The notes: a model not told the origin generated them from the sequence alone. Positions 6,234 to 14,296 are shown, counted from the stretch's first letter. The stretch: 64,000 nucleotides of DNA from Bacteroidia bacterium (GCA_030430845.1 JAUIKE010000001.1:3545-67544); one strand, 5' to 3'. Made by a program: numbers and translations.

Positions 6234-9200
6234 TTACCTATCTTCATATATCTCTTCCTGTTCCTTTGTATACAAGACAGCTCCGTAATGTAGCAGCATC
6301 TCAAATTCATTATCGGTAAGCGGTTCGATCCACTGTACTTTTGTCAGATCCAGTCCTTCCACCTTCAGCCCTGTATAATTCATGATGCTTTTTTCAAGTT
6401 TCGTATTTTCCATGTTCCATTTTTTGAGGGTCAGGTCCTGCGAGGTCGAATACAGGTATTTTCCTTCATCGTCAAAGCTCAAATCAATGATATAGTCAGT
6501 ATGGCCAATAAACTTCCTGATGTTGATTTCATTAGTATCTCGATTCAAAGTAATTTCAATCAGGCTTTTATTGGTGCCGGCCATGATTTTATTCAAATCC
6601 TTATGATAGGCTGCATAGGTAAAATACTCCTCAGTATCAGAAACATCTATGATCAGCCGTTCTTCGCGAGTATCTATATTCCACTCTTTCAACTTCCCAT
6701 CCATACCTCCCGAGAGTAGATAATTTGCTAAGACATCCATAGTAAAAACACCGTCACCATGGTCAAATTCTGCAACAGGTTTATCTTCTTCCAAATCTGC
6801 ATCCCAAACAAATAAGCGGCCATTCACCTCACTGACGATAACAAAAAATCGGTTTTCGTCGACCATGATCGCTACCTGGGTAATAGATTTCCTTACAGTC
6901 CTGGTACGATAAGATCTTATTTGTTTTCTTTCTTTCAAGGACCATAGATTGAGTCGCCCATTCATATCTCCGGAAGCGACGATCCCCGCTTTATTATTGA
7001 TAGCAAGAGAGGTTACCGTGGCTTGATGCTCTTCAAATGCCCACTTCAACTTTCCCCTCAAATCCCATATTTGAATGAGACCGTCCTCCCCAGCTGTGAC
7101 GATGCGGTCGGTTTCTCCTCTGTCAGTTTCGTAATATCCAATGGCATAAGGCGGGGAAGAAGCCTGAAGCTTGTATTTAAATGCCAGGGTATCACTATCT
7201 AATCCCTGAATGTCACCATTTTCCGAACATGCCAGCACGAATGGAGAACCAGGCATTTTGCAGATGGCATTGTAAGGGATCAGATGAGGAGAAAAAGCAT
7301 GCTCGACCTGCCCAGTAGCGGTCGACCATTTTTTGATCGAGCCGTCAAAGGAGCCGGAAAAGAAATAATTTTCATCTTTCAGGTACACGATACTGGAAGC
7401 TCGCCGGACGTGCCCTTTAAACACCTGTGTGACAGAATGCTGTCGAGCCCCCTGGGGGTCTTTTAAGGCCCATTCATAGATGTAATCATCCAGTCCTGCG
7501 ACCAATAAATATTCTCCGGACGGGCTGTAAGCCACATCAGCGCTGTAAAACTGAGGATTGTTCTTAGGTGGATTGACAAAATGAAACACTTTTTGTTCCT
7601 TGTCAAAATCTATTTTCCATTCTTTAATGATCCACTCCATACTGCCCAAAGTTCCTTCCAAAGACACGGCGACGAAGAACCTGCTATCCGGGCTCAAAGC
7701 CAGTGCGACCACATTTTTGTGAGGATACACCCTGGTTTTTATTTTGGTAAGGGTAGATATTTCGATTAAAGCTTGGTTCTTCCCGCCTACCAAAATGGCA
7801 TTTCCTCCCTTGATATACCGAAAACACTGGGCTTGCTTTCCATCCGGATAGAACCATGAGCGGCACTGCCCGTCACGAGTTGACCATTCCCCCATTTTTC
7901 CATCATCATACAGAGCCATGATGGTTGCTCCATCCGGATGATATTCTATTTGGAGGATACCGGTTTTATGGCCTCGCAGAACTTTCAATGCCTGGCCGGT
8001 TTCTACCGACCACTCGATGATTTTATTATCCAGGCCTCCGGAAGCGATTTTTTGACCATCGGGGCTGAAGGCGACCGTCCCCACTTCGTCGTTATGGCGG
8101 TGAATGCCTCCTAGGTCATGGAAATGTTCCAGGGTACTCAATTTCCACAATTTCACATGCCCTGATCGGGATGCCGAAGCTAAAATCTGACCGTCAGGGC
8201 TTAGCCTTACTACGTTCACTTCACTTTCATGGCCTTCTGAGAATAATTGCTTGGGGGCCAGGTAGCTTTCGTCCCATTTACTGTCGATGGCATAGCCCTT
8301 ATCCCCAGGCACCACTACCCGGCGACAATCGATCCCATTAAAATTAAAGCCGCTCAGGTGTAGGTCAGACAGATCGACTCCTGCAAAGCTCCCCCTCAAT
8401 TTTTTCCAGATATGCAGGATGTTCCACACACAATGGCCTATTTTTTCTTTTTCAAATATACCCCGGCAAAGATCAACCACATGGCCCAGGCTGGTTTTTT
8501 GTCTGTAATCCTCCCATTTCAATTTAGGGTTTGCAAATTCAGGCTTGTTGTAATGCTCGCCGGCCAACTCCCCCAAAGTTTTTTGAAGGTTCTCAGGAAG
8601 GACCTGATCCCTTAAAACAGAAGGGATCTCTCCTTTTTCCAAAGAAGCATTTATCTCATTCAATACATGCCGGGCTGCGAAGTATTCCTGAAAAGACTGG
8701 TGGGTAAACCTCAGGACCCAACCTTCCTTGGCAACCGGAAACAGCGCTTTGGCCAGGTCCTGGGCCAGGCGTTCAAAGCGACCAATTTCTTTGACCAAAG
8801 ACAATTCTCCGATCTGTAAATACTGGATACCCATCCGATATCTTTTGATATGACTCCGGAAACTAAATTCTTTGAAAAAATCCGGTTCGCTGAATCGATT
8901 AAAAGCTACTCTGACGATTTGTTCCAGTTCTTTTTCCGTAATCTCCTGGACTTGTGCTTTTTCCATATGGTAAGCAATGAAGGGCAGCACGTAATGAATG
9001 GTAAAATGGCATCGAGTGCGCAATTCAGCCAGTTCCTCTCCTTGAGATTCTTTTTCAAATTTATGCAACTGGATCTCCAGGTAATCCCAAATGAGCTCAG
9101 CCGTACTGTTGATCGGCCGAAGGGTATTAGGCATATCTGCCAATTGCTCATTTTGCAGGCCGGCGTATAATCGCAGCATCATCGGAATGGTCAGCAGATC

Positions 9201-10202
9201 TTTGAGATCCTCATTGATCGCATTAAATTTCTCCTCCTTTTTGTCATCTTCGAGGAATAAGTAAGCTTTGACCTGCTCTTCTGATAAAGGTATGACCTCC
9301 AGTTTTTCAAAACTTTCGGTAAATGGGTGGTTCGATTCAAAACGAGAACTAACGATCATCCTAAGGTGGCCTTTATTGGCCAAAGGGGCCCATTTTTCAT
9401 TCAGATCGATCAGTAATGGGGTAATATCCGTAGTGATCTCGTCCAATCCATCTAAGATCAAAAGCACATCTTCCAGACCGGCTTCCTTTCCTTTTATTGA
9501 ACCGTTGTTTTCACCGCTCAGCCATTTCCGTAAATTTTGTTCCGACTCACTATCCAGGCGAGGGCGTCCCAGGTAGTATTCCGCAATATATTGTGTAATG
9601 AAGTTTTCGCGAATCAATGGAGAAACCCTGTTGTATTGATTTAAGGCAATGTAAATAGGGATGATATTTTTCCCGGCTCGATTTTTCCCTTTCTTCTTAC
9701 CGCTTGAGTCCTCTTTTTCTTTACCATGTCCTATCAATTGCTTCCAGGCCCACAACAGGGATACCGTTTTACCCATTCCCCCCTCTCCGGTTAGGAAGGT
9801 ATTACGCTCGGTTTCCTGAAGGTGGTCCATCAAAGAAACGACGGCTTCTGTCTCTTCTCCTACGGTAACATTGGCCAGCAGATGCTCGCTATACTCCAAA
9901 TGTTCGAAACGACCATCAGGGCCTGTAATTCCTTCATAGAAGAAATAAGAACCTTTATTCAATAACTTAGCGATCTCCTCTACCTTCAGTCCTTGCTGCC
10001 CCTGAAAGATCTGGGTGATCTTATTACCGCCTACAATATCACCGACTGATAAATTACCGCCTCCGGTGCTGATATTCTCAAAAAAATGCCCTTTCGATTC
10101 CTTCTTGATGATGGTTTGGGAATGGTCGTGAAAATCTCTGCCGGCGACCTTATTATGATCGCCTGTTACATTTTGGTTTACGGATTGGTCTTGTTTTAAC
10201 AT
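6234..10202 (-). CDS. NACHT-family STAND NTPase with about 14 C-terminal WD40 repeats and an N-terminal Gly/Asp-rich motif (bacterial NLR-like protein)
   Basis: Walker A GEGGMGKT (aa 139-146, nt 9765-9788) and Walker B VLLILDGLDE (aa 246-255). Helical NACHT-associated region extends to about aa 640. About 14 blades end in xxxW motifs (VKLWKL, IIEWSV, MGEWST ... LKKWNM; roughly nt 6333-8240). The N-terminal 70 aa are homologous to the caspase C-terminal region. Confidence 0.9.
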   Translation of the reverse strand: MLKQDQSVNQNVTGDHNKVAGRDFHDHSQTIIKKESKGHFFENISTGGGNLSVGDIVGGNKITQIFQGQQGLKVEEIAKLLNKGSYFFYEGITGPDGRFEHLEYSEHLLANVTVGEETEAVVSLMDHLQETERNTFLTGEGGMGKTVSLLWAWKQLIGHGKEKEDSSGKKKGKNRAGKNIIPIYIALNQYNRVSPLIRENFITQYIAEYYLGRPRLDSESEQNLRKWLSGENNGSIKGKEAGLEDVLLILDGLDEITTDITPLLIDLNEKWAPLANKGHLRMIVSSRFESNHPFTESFEKLEVIPLSEEQVKAYLFLEDDKKEEKFNAINEDLKDLLTIPMMLRLYAGLQNEQLADMPNTLRPINSTAELIWDYLEIQLHKFEKESQGEELAELRTRCHFTIHYVLPFIAYHMEKAQVQEITEKELEQIVRVAFNRFSEPDFFKEFSFRSHIKRYRMGIQYLQIGELSLVKEIGRFERLAQDLAKALFPVAKEGWVLRFTHQSFQEYFAARHVLNEINASLEKGEIPSVLRDQVLPENLQKTLGELAGEHYNKPEFANPKLKWEDYRQKTSLGHVVDLCRGIFEKEKIGHCVWNILHIWKKLRGSFAGVDLSDLHLSGFNFNGIDCRRVVVPGDKGYAIDSKWDESYLAPKQLFSEGHESEVNVVRLSPDGQILASASRSGHVKLWKLSTLEHFHDLGGIHRHNDEVGTVAFSPDGQKIASGGLDNKIIEWSVETGQALKVLRGHKTGILQIEYHPDGATIMALYDDGKMGEWSTRDGQCRSWFYPDGKQAQCFRYIKGGNAILVGGKNQALIEISTLTKIKTRVYPHKNVVALALSPDSRFFVAVSLEGTLGSMEWIIKEWKIDFDKEQKVFHFVNPPKNNPQFYSADVAYSPSGEYLLVAGLDDYIYEWALKDPQGARQHSVTQVFKGHVRRASSIVYLKDENYFFSGSFDGSIKKWSTATGQVEHAFSPHLIPYNAICKMPGSPFVLACSENGDIQGLDSDTLAFKYKLQASSPPYAIGYYETDRGETDRIVTAGEDGLIQIWDLRGKLKWAFEEHQATVTSLAINNKAGIVASGDMNGRLNLWSLKERKQIRSYRTRTVRKSITQVAIMVDENRFFVIVSEVNGRLFVWDADLEEDKPVAEFDHGDGVFTMDVLANYLLSGGMDGKLKEWNIDTREERLIIDVSDTEEYFTYAAYHKDLNKIMAGTNKSLIEITLNRDTNEINIRKFIGHTDYIIDLSFDDEGKYLYSTSQDLTLKKWNMENTKLEKSIMNYTGLKVEGLDLTKVQWIEPLTDNEFEMLLHYGAVLYTKEQEEIYEDR

Positions 10203-10219
10203 AAGGTATTAGACTTGTA

Positions 10220-10250
10220 AAATCGTAAGCGCTGGTGGCGCTTACGATTT
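10220..10250 (-). promoter_or_regulatory. intercistronic stem-loop between the caspase-like gene and the NACHT gene
   Basis: Perfect 13-bp stem aaatcgtaagcgc / gcgcttacgattt with a 5-nt loop. It fills most of the 55-nt gap. On the minus strand only 4 T follow it, so it is a weak terminator at best. Confidence 0.5.
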
Positions 10251-10257
10251 CTATAAA

Positions 10258-11730
10258 TTACTTAAACCATTCCCCGACTTTTCCAGCGATCTTCTTCAAA
10301 GCCACGGCGGCACCTGCAGGCGGGTTGATGATCGTGGCAGAGATGGTTTCCAGGATATCAGGGGCATTCTCTTTTAGGGTTCCGATCCATCTTTTGAGCT
10401 TGCTTTCCTTAGGCTCGGGCTTTTGGATCTCTTGTTCGATTTTTTCGACGGTTTCCTTTAATTCTTCCCGGTCGATGTCTTCATGATCTTCGGGCCACTG
10501 CTCGACCTTGGCATAGGCTTGCTGGAAGATCTGCGCCAGCACATCTCCCGAAACGCCCTCGGTGATGGTGTTGCCCTGACCGCCCAACTGCACATTGTGG
10601 CCGCTGATATCTCCGGTTTCAAACTTATCTCCTCCGACATGATCTCCTATAGTAAAGTCTCCACCGCCCGTATTCACTCCTTCTATCATGTGGCCTCCAG
10701 AGGTTTTGCTATTATCTGTTGTAGAATTATCGGTCAGATCTCCGCCGGCCACTTTATTATGATCTCCTGCGACATTAATGTTCAGGATCTGCTCTACAGA
10801 AGGCGGCTCCTCTCCTTCCGGGATACCTTCTCCGCCCATCAGCATGGAGATATCGAATAGCTTGCCGTCGAAGCCAAAGTCGGGCTCCTGATTGGCATTG
10901 TGGAGTTCCATAGTGGTTCCGGGAACTTTGGAGCCTACATAGCTCATCACATCAAACACATTCACCATGGTCGGTTCGCCGGCTTCGGCGCGCTTGCCGT
11001 GTCCGTTCAGGGCTTCGATGAGGTGGTAGGTAAAGACGCTCATGCCCAGTCTTTCATGCAGGTAAGAGAGCTGATGCCCTTGCGAGGAGGTCAGGACGGC
11101 GCGGGAGGGCTTTTTGGGATCGGGCTCTTCTTCGCCGTTGCCACCGCCGGGTTTAGAGCCTGAAGAGCTACTACCATCTTCCTTGTTTTTTACTATTTTT
11201 GCTCCGCTTACACCAAATGCTTCCAGATTGGCTGCATGGACAGTGAAGCCTTCCGGTCCATCCGATTGACCTCCGCCGGCGGTAGTGCCTCCTGCATAGC
11301 AGCTATCCATTATCAACAATAGCCGTTGAGCCTTAATCTGATCAATTTTTTTAGCGAATTCGCTGTCTTCCAAAGCAGTATCTTCTGGAATTAGCAAGTC
11401 AAAGTCATAGGGTACTAGATAATATTTTTCGGTTTCTGAGTTTAAATAGCCATGTCCTGAAAAATAAACTAAAACTGTAGAATCAGTCTGGTTCTTAGTT
11501 TTTTCACTTAACAGTTTCAGTTCACGAAGGATATTCTTTAAAGTTGCTTCCGTTCCTGTCAGCACAACCACATTCTCTGATTGATATCCACATTTTGCAG
11601 GATCAATCAAGACTTCTTTAAGCCGAATAACATCTGTGGCTGTCTCTGGCAAGGCTGGCGCGTCGGCCGTATTTTCCTGATCGCTGACGCCGATCAGCAA
11701 AGCATATCCTTTTTCAAATGTATTGCTCAT
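10258..11730 (-). CDS. caspase-like (peptidase C14 family) protease with C-terminal Gly/Asp-rich motif and helical tail
   Basis: The caspase/metacaspase catalytic dyad context is intact: VLVYFSGH(93)GY and LLLIMDSC(144)YAGG, followed downstream by AVLTSSQGHQLSY. A Gly/Ser/acidic linker covers aa 146-205. The motif covers aa 311-404. The C-terminal 85 aa are charged and helical in character. Confidence 0.85.
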   Translation of the reverse strand: MSNTFEKGYALLIGVSDQENTADAPALPETATDVIRLKEVLIDPAKCGYQSENVVVLTGTEATLKNILRELKLLSEKTKNQTDSTVLVYFSGHGYLNSETEKYYLVPYDFDLLIPEDTALEDSEFAKKIDQIKAQRLLLIMDSCYAGGTTAGGGQSDGPEGFTVHAANLEAFGVSGAKIVKNKEDGSSSSGSKPGGGNGEEEPDPKKPSRAVLTSSQGHQLSYLHERLGMSVFTYHLIEALNGHGKRAEAGEPTMVNVFDVMSYVGSKVPGTTMELHNANQEPDFGFDGKLFDISMLMGGEGIPEGEEPPSVEQILNINVAGDHNKVAGGDLTDNSTTDNSKTSGGHMIEGVNTGGGDFTIGDHVGGDKFETGDISGHNVQLGGQGNTITEGVSGDVLAQIFQQAYAKVEQWPEDHEDIDREELKETVEKIEQEIQKPEPKESKLKRWIGTLKENAPDILETISATIINPPAGAAVALKKIAGKVGEWFK

Positions 11731-11758: not shown

Positions 11759-13942
11759 TTATGAAAATAGTTTAGATTTTTCGTCCCGGAGTTTGAAAGG
11801 CAAACGGATGATTACCCTGGTTCCCATACCTTCTCCATTGGTATCTTTTAGATCAATAATTTCGATTCGGGATCCTTTAATGTTACCTGATGCCTTCAGA
11901 CGTTCCTCTGTGATCTTCATTCCGTGGGACTGGTGTTTGAAAACGGAATTAGCTTTCATTTCTCTCGACCTTTCCCGTCCGATCCCGTCATCTTCGATGA
12001 TGCAGACCAGTTTTTTATCGTTCCTTTCAATTTTGATGGATACTTGTCCTTTGCCCTCTTTGGGTTTAATCCCGTGCCAGATGGCATTTTCTACATAGGG
12101 CTGTAGGATCATGGCGGGTACTTCGATCCGGTCGGTTTGTAAGCCTTCCGAAACGGCGATATCGTAGTGCAGCTTATCCTGAAACCGTAGTTGCTCAAGG
12201 TCCAGAAAGTTTTTAATGGTTTTCAGTTCATCTGTCAAACTGATATTTGGCGCTCGGGAGCTGTTAAGGATTTGTCGGTTTAATCTCGAGAATTTGATCA
12301 GGTATTTGGAAGCCGCTTCCTTATTCCCTCGATTGATCAGGCTTTCGATAGCATTGAGACTGTTGGAAATAAAATGGGGGTTGATTTGGGCTCTTAGGGC
12401 TTCCATTTGAGATTTTAATCTTTTCTGCTCGGCTCTTTGTAGGAAAAGAAGGAAAATTAGACCGGCTACAGACAATACACCCAGGCTAATCAATAATAAC
12501 TCCCTTCTCTTCCGGGCACTGGTCCGGTCATTTTCCAATCTTTCCATTTCCCGTACCCGGTAATTTGCCTCGGTAAGATTACGTGTCATTAAGTCAGCAA
12601 CTTTTTTGTAGCTTTTTGCAACATACTCTATAACATCTCCCCCAAAAATTTCATCACAATTGCCTTGCCCCTCCAATTGTTTGTCGATGCAATTTGCCAA
12701 AATATTATATGAGAGATAATCCATCATTGAAAGCACACCTTTCTCCTTTGCATCCTGGAGCGCCTTCTTATAAAAAACCAGAGCACTATCTATATAAACG
12801 TAAGCCTGATCATAATAGAAACTCGCTGAGTCTGAGTTCTCGAACTTAATGGACTTAAGATATTCGACATACGCACGTTCCGAATAGGTAATCCCTAGCC
12901 GGCCATAACTATGATATAAATCTTCATTTTGGATGGCTATTCGGTCATGAAGCACTTTTACAGCCTTTGAAAACAGGTCATTATCTCCAATTAGAAGATA
13001 TTGCCCAATTAAGGATTTGCTTTGGATTCTGTAAACCTCATTCAACAAGTCATTCTTTCTTTTAAGACTAGCCGTTGAGAAGCTTAAATCTAGCAATGAA
13101 TCAGCCTTATTATACTTCTCTTCATTTACCCAAAGCATGGCTTCATGTGCATTTAGCCTTGCTAAGCCTATTTCATTTTTGCATCGTATGTAATTTTTTC
13201 TACTTTCCCCATAATACTTTCTTGCAATCTCAACGTCCTCATTTTCAAAGGAAACACCTATATCATGTTGGATTTCTGCCACTAGATACAACGAATCTAT
13301 TTCCTCTAATCCAGAAGTTTTTAATGTTTCCAATGCTTTTTGGAAATATCCCCTAGCTGTATCCAGCTTCAAAGGCCTATCTTCCTCATACTGTCTATAG
13401 TGAATAATCCCAATCAAATCATATACCCTCACCAACCACTTCTTCTCACCTAATCGATCAAACAATAAGCGACTCATCTCCGCATCTACCAGAGCATCCT
13501 CGATTCCTCCGCCCCAAATTTGTAATCGCCGCTTCATTAGGGCGATGTAATACAGGCTAATCGCCCGTTGCAGGTCCCAGTTTTGATCAGTGGCCAGGTC
13601 ATAGGCCTGTTCGGCATAGAACAGGGCCACACCCGGGTCAAAGCCTTTTAAGCGGTCGGTCATTACCAGGAGGCTGTCTACTTGCCTGGCTTTCTTGGGC
13701 AGCTTGAGAACTGCCTCCATTACCGAGACGGTATCCACTAGGTCTTCCAGATCTTCGGTAGCGTAGTCCACTTGTCGGAAGAGCTCGTCGTCTATCCTGG
13801 GTTGTGGCTGGCAGGAGCAGAGCAAGATGAATAAAAGAAGGTAAAGCAGTTTCAACAAAAGCCCGATACGCTTGTAGCAATCGTTCACTGGAGTAATTGC
13901 GGTGGTGTGATCATATACTTGCGTAGGTGCTTCCTTGGGCAT
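11759..13942 (-). CDS. sensor histidine kinase, TPR-like N-terminal region plus LytS/YehU-type kinase core
   Basis: Lipobox-like N-terminus (LLFILLCSCQ), a long helical-repeat region and a TM segment LLLISLGVLSVAGLIFLLFL. The His_kinase motif INPHFISNSLNAIESL and HATPase_c motifs (YVENAIWHG, EDDGIG, GMGTRV) follow. No response regulator is nearby. Confidence 0.85.
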   Translation of the reverse strand: MPKEAPTQVYDHTTAITPVNDCYKRIGLLLKLLYLLLFILLCSCQPQPRIDDELFRQVDYATEDLEDLVDTVSVMEAVLKLPKKARQVDSLLVMTDRLKGFDPGVALFYAEQAYDLATDQNWDLQRAISLYYIALMKRRLQIWGGGIEDALVDAEMSRLLFDRLGEKKWLVRVYDLIGIIHYRQYEEDRPLKLDTARGYFQKALETLKTSGLEEIDSLYLVAEIQHDIGVSFENEDVEIARKYYGESRKNYIRCKNEIGLARLNAHEAMLWVNEEKYNKADSLLDLSFSTASLKRKNDLLNEVYRIQSKSLIGQYLLIGDNDLFSKAVKVLHDRIAIQNEDLYHSYGRLGITYSERAYVEYLKSIKFENSDSASFYYDQAYVYIDSALVFYKKALQDAKEKGVLSMMDYLSYNILANCIDKQLEGQGNCDEIFGGDVIEYVAKSYKKVADLMTRNLTEANYRVREMERLENDRTSARKRRELLLISLGVLSVAGLIFLLFLQRAEQKRLKSQMEALRAQINPHFISNSLNAIESLINRGNKEAASKYLIKFSRLNRQILNSSRAPNISLTDELKTIKNFLDLEQLRFQDKLHYDIAVSEGLQTDRIEVPAMILQPYVENAIWHGIKPKEGKGQVSIKIERNDKKLVCIIEDDGIGRERSREMKANSVFKHQSHGMKITEERLKASGNIKGSRIEIIDLKDTNGEGMGTRVIIRLPFKLRDEKSKLFS

Positions 13943-14107: not shown

Positions 14108-14296
14108 GACACTGGGGGCACTGTTTTTTTTGGACACTGGGGACACTGGGACCACTAGGGGCGCTGTTTTTTTTGGACACTGGGGACACTGGGACCACTG
14201 GGGGCACTGTTTCTTTTTTTGGACACTGGGAACACTGGGACCACTAGGGGCGCTGTTTTTTTTGGACACTGGGAACGCTGAGAACACTAGGGGGTT
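14108..14296. repeat. tandem repeat, about 4.5 copies of a 43-46 bp unit, in a divergent intergenic region
   Basis: Units at 14132-14174, 14175-14220 and 14221-14263, with partial copies at both ends. Consensus: GGACACTGGGRACACTGGGACCACTRGGGGCRCTG followed by a T8-10 tract. Each unit contains 9-bp sub-repeats (GGACACTGG / GGACACTGG / GACCACTAG). Confidence 0.9.

Follow-up and report, generated by a model that had tools for sequence, protein, structure and literature searches.

A G/D/N-rich segment shared by a NACHT-WD40 protein and the adjacent caspase of a Bacteroidia bacterium as a probable homotypic coupling motif

Two adjacent genes of a Bacteroidia bacterium, one encoding a NACHT-WD40 protein (the NLR) and the other encoding a caspase, share a segment that is rich in Gly, Asp and Asn. 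This segment is proposed, with a probability of about 0.6, to be a homotypic coupling motif through which the NACHT-WD40 sensor is connected to the caspase effector, probably by a putative beta-rich, amyloid-like co-assembly. The genes lie in a stretch of 64,000 nucleotides (GCA_030430845.1 JAUIKE010000001.1:3545-67544), referred to as the window, and the similarity was first pointed out in a model's reading of that DNA alone (the sequence-only reading). The shared segment is selected, specific and recurrent, and the pairs co-evolve. Judged from its sequence, the motif is a new and rare family in an unusual architecture, which is bipartite, internal, accompanied by an extra cassette and followed by Ternary complex associated domain 2 (TCAD2). 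The kind of coupling is already described from two directions, as bacterial amyloid signalling sequences (BASS) and as effector-associated domains (EADs). The features of the pair, in window positions, are listed below.

10258..11730, minus strand: caspase (effector) gene, 490 aa; Peptidase_C14, then a G/D/N-rich tail, then TCAD2
10624..10794, minus strand: shared segment on the caspase, aa 313-369 (BLASTP 31/57, E = 2e-16)
10729-10782, minus strand: caspase block 1, NINVAGDHNKVAGGDLTD, aa 317-334; conserved block of the shared segment
10624-10683, minus strand: caspase block 2, EGVNTGGGDFTIGDHVGGDK, aa 350-369; conserved block, after a variable spacer
10537..10623, minus strand: extra caspase cassette, FETGDISGHNVQLGGQGNTITEGVSGDVL, aa 370-398; no partner within the window
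10276..10536, minus strand: TCAD2, caspase aa 399-485; helical, not on the NLR
6234..10202, minus strand: NACHT-WD40 (sensor, NLR) gene, 1322 aa; STAND NTPase, then WD40 beta-propellers at aa ~650-1300
10020..10190, minus strand: shared segment on the NLR, aa 5-61, at its extreme N-terminus; block 1 NQNVTGDHNKVAGRDFHD, block 2 ENISTGGGNLSVGDIVGGNK
to 9999, minus strand: ITQIFQG, directly after the NLR copy of the shared segment

The sequence-only reading had aligned NLR aa 11-61 (nt 10020-10172) with caspase aa 319-369 (nt 10624-10776); these coordinates translate exactly to the two 51-residue segments, and a recount agrees that 29 of the 51 residues are identical without gaps. BLASTP stretches the match to 31/57 (NLR aa 5-61 and caspase aa 313-369, E = 2e-16, composition-adjusted) and gives no further significant similarity, consistent with the claim that the remainder of the two proteins is unrelated. 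The Smith-Waterman score of the pair is 163, compared with 33 ± 6.5 when the NLR segment is shuffled 5000 times with its composition preserved (z = 20, shuffle maximum 65). Counted by reading the alignment, block one (NLR aa 9-26) has 13/18 identical residues and block two (aa 42-61) has 11/20, and 6/15 are identical in the spacer between them. The DNA of the two copies is 59% identical, 21 of the 31 conserved residues are encoded by different codons, and third-position identity at these residues is 10/31, which is about random. Synonymous sites are saturated and the match has therefore been kept by selection at the protein level and not by recent gene conversion. A tblastn search of the 64 kb window found no third copy of the motif.

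Some details of the earlier description had to be adjusted. The tetrapeptide QIFQ, which was said to end both segments, is present in both proteins, but it is located at NLR aa 64-67, three residues past the block, and at caspase aa 400-403, about 30 residues further on, where it falls in the first TCAD2 helix. The additional caspase residues after the motif are as described, with the stretch FETGDISGHNVQLGGQGNTITEGVSGD at aa 370-396. The segment does sit at the NLR N-terminus and after the effector domain of the adjacent gene, but it does not sit at the caspase C-terminus, since TCAD2, which the sequence-only reading overlooked, comes after it.

The kinase gene that lies upstream (listed further below), the caspase gene and the NLR gene are collinear on the minus strand, and the caspase stop and the NLR start are separated by 55 nt. 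Caspase aa 7-249 match Peptidase_C14 (Pfam E = 9e-18), and the family alignment shows that the catalytic columns, His93 (SGHG) and Cys144 (DSC), are invariant. TCAD2 (PF19971) is found at caspase aa 399-485 with E = 9e-14 and 51.9 bits against a cut-off of 27, and PADLOC PDC-M14B candidate models match aa 377-468, in the TCAD2 region. The NLR features two WD40 propeller regions (Pfam E = 1e-51), a Walker A motif, GEGGMGKT, at aa 139-146 (nt 9765-9788), and a Walker B motif, LLILDGLDE, which includes D251. The match of the NLR to Pfam NACHT is weak (E = 0.0014, 18.9 bits, under the 26.7 cut-off), and orthologous partner proteins reach a NACHT E of 4e-12. Across 30 partner proteins, 16 of which match NACHT, the residues corresponding to NLR G142, G144, K145 and D251 are nearly invariant.

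Homologous loci were drawn from GTDB species genomes, giving 80 loci from Saprospiraceae/Lewinellaceae, many Chloroflexota, filamentous cyanobacteria, Desulfobacterales, Planctomycetota and Nitrospiraceae; the best caspase homologues are no more than 35-47% identical. Saprospiraceae and Chloroflexota have a filamentous habit. The pairing scan compared the caspase tail at each locus with residues 1-350 of the neighbouring open reading frames (ORFs) at E < 1e-3. In 39 of 83 loci it found a segment in common between the caspase tail and partner ORFs, of which there are 63, with 60 on the same strand; the pairing extends across several phyla. Partners of at least 600 aa (n = 27) match within their first 100 aa in 21 cases and have a Walker A motif in 20. 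Of 30 partner proteins, 16 match Pfam NACHT and 13 match AAA_16. The sequence-only reading had named a lack of cross-genome co-occurrence with STAND NTPases as grounds for giving it up; the co-occurrence recurs in these 39 loci, mostly with NACHT/AAA_16 partner N-termini.

When the caspase tail was compared with the neighbour N-termini of all loci, its own neighbour was the top match in 23 of 79 loci, where chance would give about one locus. The Smith-Waterman scores of own pairs are 163 in the window and 149 in a Saprospiraceae locus, L003. Between these two loci the NLR N-termini score 95, the tails score 112 and the cross pairs score 58 and 79. The own-pair scores are above the orthologue scores and therefore partners within a genome are more alike than orthologues. 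The shuffles, the codon divergence and the recurrence in related loci together bear out the proposal of a specific, selected element that is common to the effector and the adjacent STAND N-terminus.

The motif is also rare. An HMMER search of 1.84 billion representative proteins, with a profile made from the two window copies and the nearest homologous tail, returned two matches, which are the window NLR and a C-terminal caspase fragment of 155 aa that is of the L003 type. Generic low complexity, which had been put forward as the finding that would undo the proposal, is disfavoured by this count. A word-indexed search of a 5.8-billion protein set with a two-copy profile gave no match and only one word candidate, and the same kind of search with NLR aa 1-640 gave a single match. 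NLR aa 1-109 matched no Pfam family even at E <= 10, no Pfam model covers the motif, and a sequence search of the PDB found no solved structure related to the segment.

The composition of the segment, compared with the rest of both proteins, is enriched in G (2.4x), N (2.2x), V (1.45x), Q (1.3x) and I (1.3x) and depleted in L (0.34x) and K (0.72x), and P is absent. The segment is also enriched in H, T and D and poor in A, R and E. It had been described as looking beta-solenoid-like rather than helical, and the enrichment of G and N, the missing P, the depletion of L and the mild depletion of K are as reported for BASS, in which G, N, Q, V and I are enriched and P, L and K are depleted, with a similar bias in beta-helical proteins (Dyrka et al. 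2020, bioRxiv 10.1101/2020.01.06.895854). Conserved hydrophobic positions alternate with conserved G/D/N positions, an alternation that short strands linked by arcs would be expected to show.

An AlphaFold2 (AF2) monomer model of the caspase was built on a 20-sequence alignment. The model features a caspase core with a predicted local distance difference test (pLDDT) score > 90 and five TCAD2 helices at 84-94, the flanking domains scoring 84-98 overall. Caspase aa 319-392 are modelled as coil with a pLDDT of 26-34 and no confident monomer fold, and a Chloroflexota-type homologue, P0009, is alike (aa 314-391, pLDDT 26-42). A folded beta-helix or hexapeptide-repeat domain was considered and rejected on the AF2 coil and on PDB sequence matches that are non-significant (E 0.15-2); for the Chloroflexota-type segment these matches include left-handed beta-helix proteins. 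RTX and pentapeptide repeats were rejected by eye, as the residue registers do not fit.

These features are accommodated by a mechanism in which the WD40 propellers would sense a trigger and the NACHT module would oligomerise, as expected from STAND biology. Oligomerisation would gather the N-terminal motifs, which are presumed to be disordered when alone, and the gathered motifs would adopt a beta-rich stack (a beta-arch or solenoid, amyloid-like) formed from the two ~20-residue blocks. The corresponding blocks of the caspase tail would be recruited or templated by the stacked surface. The caspase domains would then cluster and be activated by proximity, with proteolysis as the result and cell death or abortive infection as its probable outcome. 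The motif pair would thereby do the job of the covalent fusion in all-in-one relatives. One such relative is encoded in a Saprospiraceae metagenome-assembled genome (L024, 9998-13648), where a caspase-NACHT-WD40 protein of 1216 aa retains the synteny with the histidine kinase. At the junction, ..GGEGVIPGLLRIGSKDYFNKMVGKDGRFAHL.., the end of the caspase domain runs straight into the pre-NACHT region, and both motif copies and TCAD2 are absent. The fusion is without the motif, and therefore the motif pair stands where the fusion has a peptide bond.

BASS are the closest known parallel to an amyloid-like coupling. BASS1-10 were described by Dyrka et al. (2020, 10.1101/2020.01.06.895854), and the same work reports BASS motifs next to non-Bell effectors, CHAT metacaspase domains among them. 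BASS are reported to be associated with multicellular bacteria. Amyloid signalling between adjacent defence genes was shown for E. coli Bab/Agp, BASS11 (Ibarlosa et al. 2024, bioRxiv 10.1101/2024.11.07.622273), and BASS11 is also reported with CHAT, EAD7 and NACHT. The window pair is similar in that the motif is present on an effector and on an NLR-like N-terminus from adjacent collinear genes, is G/N-rich and P/L-poor, and has relatives in Saprospiraceae, Chloroflexota and filamentous cyanobacteria, consistent with the multicellular association. Additionally, homologous caspases elsewhere have C09-, BASS3- and C07-like motifs. The likeness to the gene arrangement of bacterial NLR-associated amyloid motifs, which was noticed from the start, holds, with genes 55 nt apart on the same strand and a recurrence in 39/83 loci. 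The window differs from BASS in that its effector is a Peptidase_C14 caspase with an extra unpaired cassette, and amyloid behaviour here is putative.

Two possible links to named BASS clusters were rejected. A relationship of block 1 to cluster C12 (INIKGGTNTIAGNTF and INVAGDHNKVAGGDL) was suggested by raised Smith-Waterman scores, but the hidden Markov model (HMM) of C12 misses the window proteins. Kinship with BASS3/RHIM through a common 'GDHN' was not upheld, as cluster C03 scores at null level; the motif cores NVTG and NVAG depart from the RHIM tetrad (I/V)Q(I/V)G.

The caspase position that is occupied by the motif in the window is filled in different ways across the family. Many homologues are caspase-TCAD2 proteins with a conserved G/D-rich interdomain stretch, IDTGGGAY.GG.V.TGGGDFVGRDK.VHGDEVHGDKVGGDKITVGDISG..G.AIGRGA.ATV, and a G/D-rich segment ahead of TCAD2 is a feature of caspase-TCAD2 proteins family-wide. 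The closest homologues (P0002, P0004 and P0010) terminate in their own motif and are without TCAD2; the C-terminal tail of P0010, GGTFNAPVTFN, resembles BASS cluster C07. Other homologous caspases have BASS-like motifs at this position, either C09-like (GERSVAVGGDVSGS..TGD) or BASS3-like (GKYN..IQVGD), and three loci (L026, L057 and L065) have helical EAD-like segments. The segments shared between caspases and their partners likewise come in several flavours, which are G/D-rich cassettes, QQGKYN.NIG...DIQVGD (resembling cluster C03, which is BASS3 and RHIM-like), GERSVAVGGDVSGS.IVTGD.NVV (resembling C09), GNIIIQDV.NSTI.IG, and plainly helical EAD-like segments. The window caspase has a bona fide TCAD2 that is preceded by a G/D-rich segment, as in the rest of the family; the shared motif differs in that it lies outside the TCAD2 model and the NLR is without TCAD2. 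The term TCAD is absent from Kaur 2020 (main text and supplement) and from Kaur 2021.

Several results weigh against an amyloid-like co-assembly. The sequence-only reading had called for a comparison with published BASS and EAD profiles; sampled BASS1-10 sequences, the C12 HMM and Pfam EAD models gave no match. The comparison set consisted of 174 sampled BASS1-10 sequences and the C12 HMM, with BASS11 outside the set, and the best Smith-Waterman score of the motif against the 174 sequences was 49, which is reached by 10% of shuffles, so that nothing stood above the null. Neither NLR aa 1-109 nor the caspase tail has a Pfam HET-s, RHIM or EAD match (E <= 10). The window motif is 51-57 aa long and bipartite, whereas a typical BASS has ~25 aa, and the caspase copy is internal and followed by ~30 residues and the 90-aa TCAD2, whereas the canonical position is the effector C-terminus. 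AF2 does not give a cross-beta or solenoid fold, just low-confidence coil, and the high Gly/Asp content fits a flexible linker equally well. Lastly, the similarity of adjacent copies also holds for non-amyloid EADs (Kaur 2020) and therefore cannot separate an amyloid from an adaptor.

The main rival to an amyloid-like coupling is possible, though rather unlikely. The segment could be a stoichiometric, non-amyloid homotypic adaptor, in effect a functional EAD, that folds on binding its twin (for example by beta-augmentation) and brings one caspase to each NLR protomer in a finite apoptosome-like complex, possibly with TCAD2-mediated contacts and with no prion-like propagation. Kaur, Burroughs, Iyer and Aravind (2020, eLife, PMC7159879) described EAD1-11, with one copy on the terminus of a core NTPase and one on the effector of an adjacent gene, adjacent copies being most alike; they also described EAD-coupled caspases and reported that caspases are common coupled effectors. 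A caspase as the recruited effector, which the sequence-only reading had called noteworthy, has precedents in BASS-CHAT (Dyrka 2020) and EAD-coupled caspases (Kaur 2020). The window pair follows the same architectural rule and coupling logic (163 for the own pair compared with 58-112), and EAD7 adaptors and helical EAD-like segments are found within loci of the same caspase family, the latter at the very position of the motif in homologous caspases. On the EAD7 adaptor proteins of Chloroflexota the G/D segment is accompanied by a TCAD2-like helical tail, and the window NLR has the two blocks complete where fungal NWD2 has a single repeat, all of which would suit an adaptor. EADs, however, are small, folded and mostly helical, whereas the window segment has no predicted folded domain (pLDDT about 30) and no match to an EAD model. 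Its composition and its pattern of short strands and Gly arcs are BASS-like rather than those of a globular EAD, and the motifs of relatives resemble BASS families with demonstrated fibril or prion formation.

The fungal HET-S/NWD2 (HRAM) pairs are similar to the window in having an adjacent effector and NACHT-WD40 NLR with a common motif, all-in-one fusions among relatives, and two blocks of pseudo-repeat size around a variable loop. They differ in that NWD2 has one repeat while the window NLR has both blocks, and in that the window effector is a protease and not the pore-forming HeLo. The CARD-CARD and PYD contacts of Apaf-1 and the inflammasome provide a functional analogy, in which a caspase is recruited to an oligomerised STAND NTPase and activated by proximity, by way of a homotypic module that polymerises; these are six-helix folded death-fold domains that are not homologous to the window segment.

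It is improbable that the segment serves as a protease substrate or as a processing site, at which the caspase would cut itself, releasing TCAD2, and the NLR N-terminus, the similarity then reflecting substrate specificity. Asp and Lys are typical P1 residues of caspase-fold proteases, and the segment is disordered, interdomain and rich in both; a degenerate caspase-like ORF also lies next door. A few residues suffice for cleavage, whereas 57 co-evolve here in two conserved blocks, related loci have very different segment chemistry (GNIIIQDVANSTINIG, helical EADs) despite a conserved caspase domain, and the L024 fusion has no such segment. Least credible is a functionless low-complexity linker whose similarity arose by duplication or gene conversion between adjacent genes, as the Gly-rich composition, the coil prediction and the varying repeat number among Chloroflexota versions would allow, since 31/57 residues are kept at saturated synonymous sites, the score is 20 standard deviations over composition-matched shuffles, the motif is nearly unique in 1.84e9 representative proteins and the pairing with STAND N-termini recurs in 39 loci of several phyla.

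The caspase tail may have more than one partner. The syntenic locus L001 has one caspase tail that is matched by two NLRs, each of them through a different cassette (z = 7.8 and 7.1). The extra cassette of the window caspase (aa 370-398) has no partner within the window, and it aligns with the N-terminus of NLR1 of L001 (FNIGNISGGINQIGGQGNT) with a Smith-Waterman score of 59 (z = 5.7); from this resemblance, a second partner may exist outside the window. The extra cassette and the cassette-specific matches of L001 suggest that the tail is a composite docking strip that could serve more than one sensor. A more tentative extension is that the tail is a modular 'barcode' of prion-like cassettes, in which blocks 1 and 2 would be templated by the adjacent NACHT-WD40 protein and the extra cassette by another NLR elsewhere, several sensors being integrated by cassette-specific amyloid nucleation. 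If true, the barcode would give bacteria an amyloid-based equivalent of the filament nucleation of inflammasomes and would feature the first caspase-fold protease that is switched on by amyloid templating.

Other loci of the caspase family show further arrangements. Two Lewinellaceae/Saprospiraceae loci (L007, 9995-15451, and L008, 1364-12827) have a different short motif, which is GIINQDITNSEIHI in the caspase and GNIIIQDVANSTINIG at the NLR N-termini, and L008 has two NLRs with the motif. The linker between the large and small caspase subunits has tandem acidic repeats in the closest homologues P0002, P0004 and P0005 (for example, KPVTDDDEQENNSPGS x3), and the window caspase features a low-confidence Gly/Ser/Glu/Pro-rich stretch at the same linker position (aa 182-201); this linker may be an autoprocessing region. 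In Chloroflexota, small proteins of ~260 aa are encoded beside the caspase. They consist of EAD7 (PF19960), a G/D segment and a helical tail, and are found in the loci L066 (11382-12257), L068 (1585-2364) and L045 (11596-12369) and in five more loci. Their tails are homologous to the G/D and TCAD2 tail of the caspase, with up to 51% identity over 167 aa, and the proteins look like adaptors that join EAD7-bearing cores to the caspase. The EAD7 small proteins and the PADLOC PDC-M14B matches together place the caspase family within the conflict-system networks of Kaur et al. An Anaerolineae locus (GCA_016926595.1, L002, 7498-16919) encodes a caspase-TCAD2 protein followed by a MazE/PIN pair and a NACHT-FGE-sulfatase protein, in which the G/D segment sits behind a helical N-domain. 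Further on, this locus has a diversity-generating retroelement (RVT_1 and bAvd) and a second FGE-sulfatase protein, whose N-terminus also matches the caspase tail.

The remaining features around the pair in the window are as follows.

10219..10251, minus strand: intergenic hairpin with a 14-bp perfect stem and a 5-nt loop
5709..6206, minus strand: degenerate caspase-like ORF, 165 aa, just downstream of the NLR
11759..13942, minus strand: TPR + LytS-type histidine kinase gene, 29 nt upstream of the caspase

The hairpin lies within the caspase-NLR spacer and has an RNA fold of -20.5 kcal/mol (z = -5.9 against shuffles). It was not called by a terminator scan and is without a long U-tract; it is possibly an attenuator or an RNA-stability element that might set the caspase:NLR expression ratio. 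Rfam gave no match within 5-15 kb of the window. The 165-aa ORF corresponds to the p20-like N-terminal half of a caspase, with 29% identity to caspase aa 1-137 (BLASTP E = 3e-12). It has ISGGL in place of FSGHG and so is without the catalytic His, the Cys region is absent, and it has no motif; it may act as a decoy or a regulator, or be what remains of a gene. A role as a conserved third component was rejected, as no orthologue was found downstream of the NLRs in other loci.

The kinase gene encodes His_kinase (Pfam E = 1e-22) and HATPase_c domains. In all the Bacteroidota loci examined (L001, L003, L004, L007, L008 and L024) the caspase has the same TPR + LytS-type kinase gene as its direct upstream neighbour on the same strand, and no adjoining response regulator was seen in these loci. 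This synteny may reflect a regulatory link. Upstream of the histidine-kinase gene, a 43-bp tandem repeat (window 14110-14293, 4.2 copies, 88% matches) gives spurious repetitive ORFs on both strands.

The idea of such a coupling has precedents in BASS-CHAT, in EAD-caspase pairs and in the TCAD2 entry of Pfam, and therefore what the pair contributes is a new family of motifs and a clean test system rather than a new principle. The locus supplies natural controls, which are the motif-free fusion, an orthologous pair with a diverged motif and a multi-cassette tail. Within one caspase family, one position is filled by helical EADs, by BASS-like motifs or by the G/D/N-rich motif. If the coupling works as proposed, it would join two published views, that of amyloid motifs (the Saupe and Dyrka groups) and that of effector-associated domains (the Aravind group). 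The pair would then represent a compact two-gene system in which a bacterial NLR activates a caspase-fold protease by a short, transferable and co-evolving peptide module, with no death-fold domain.

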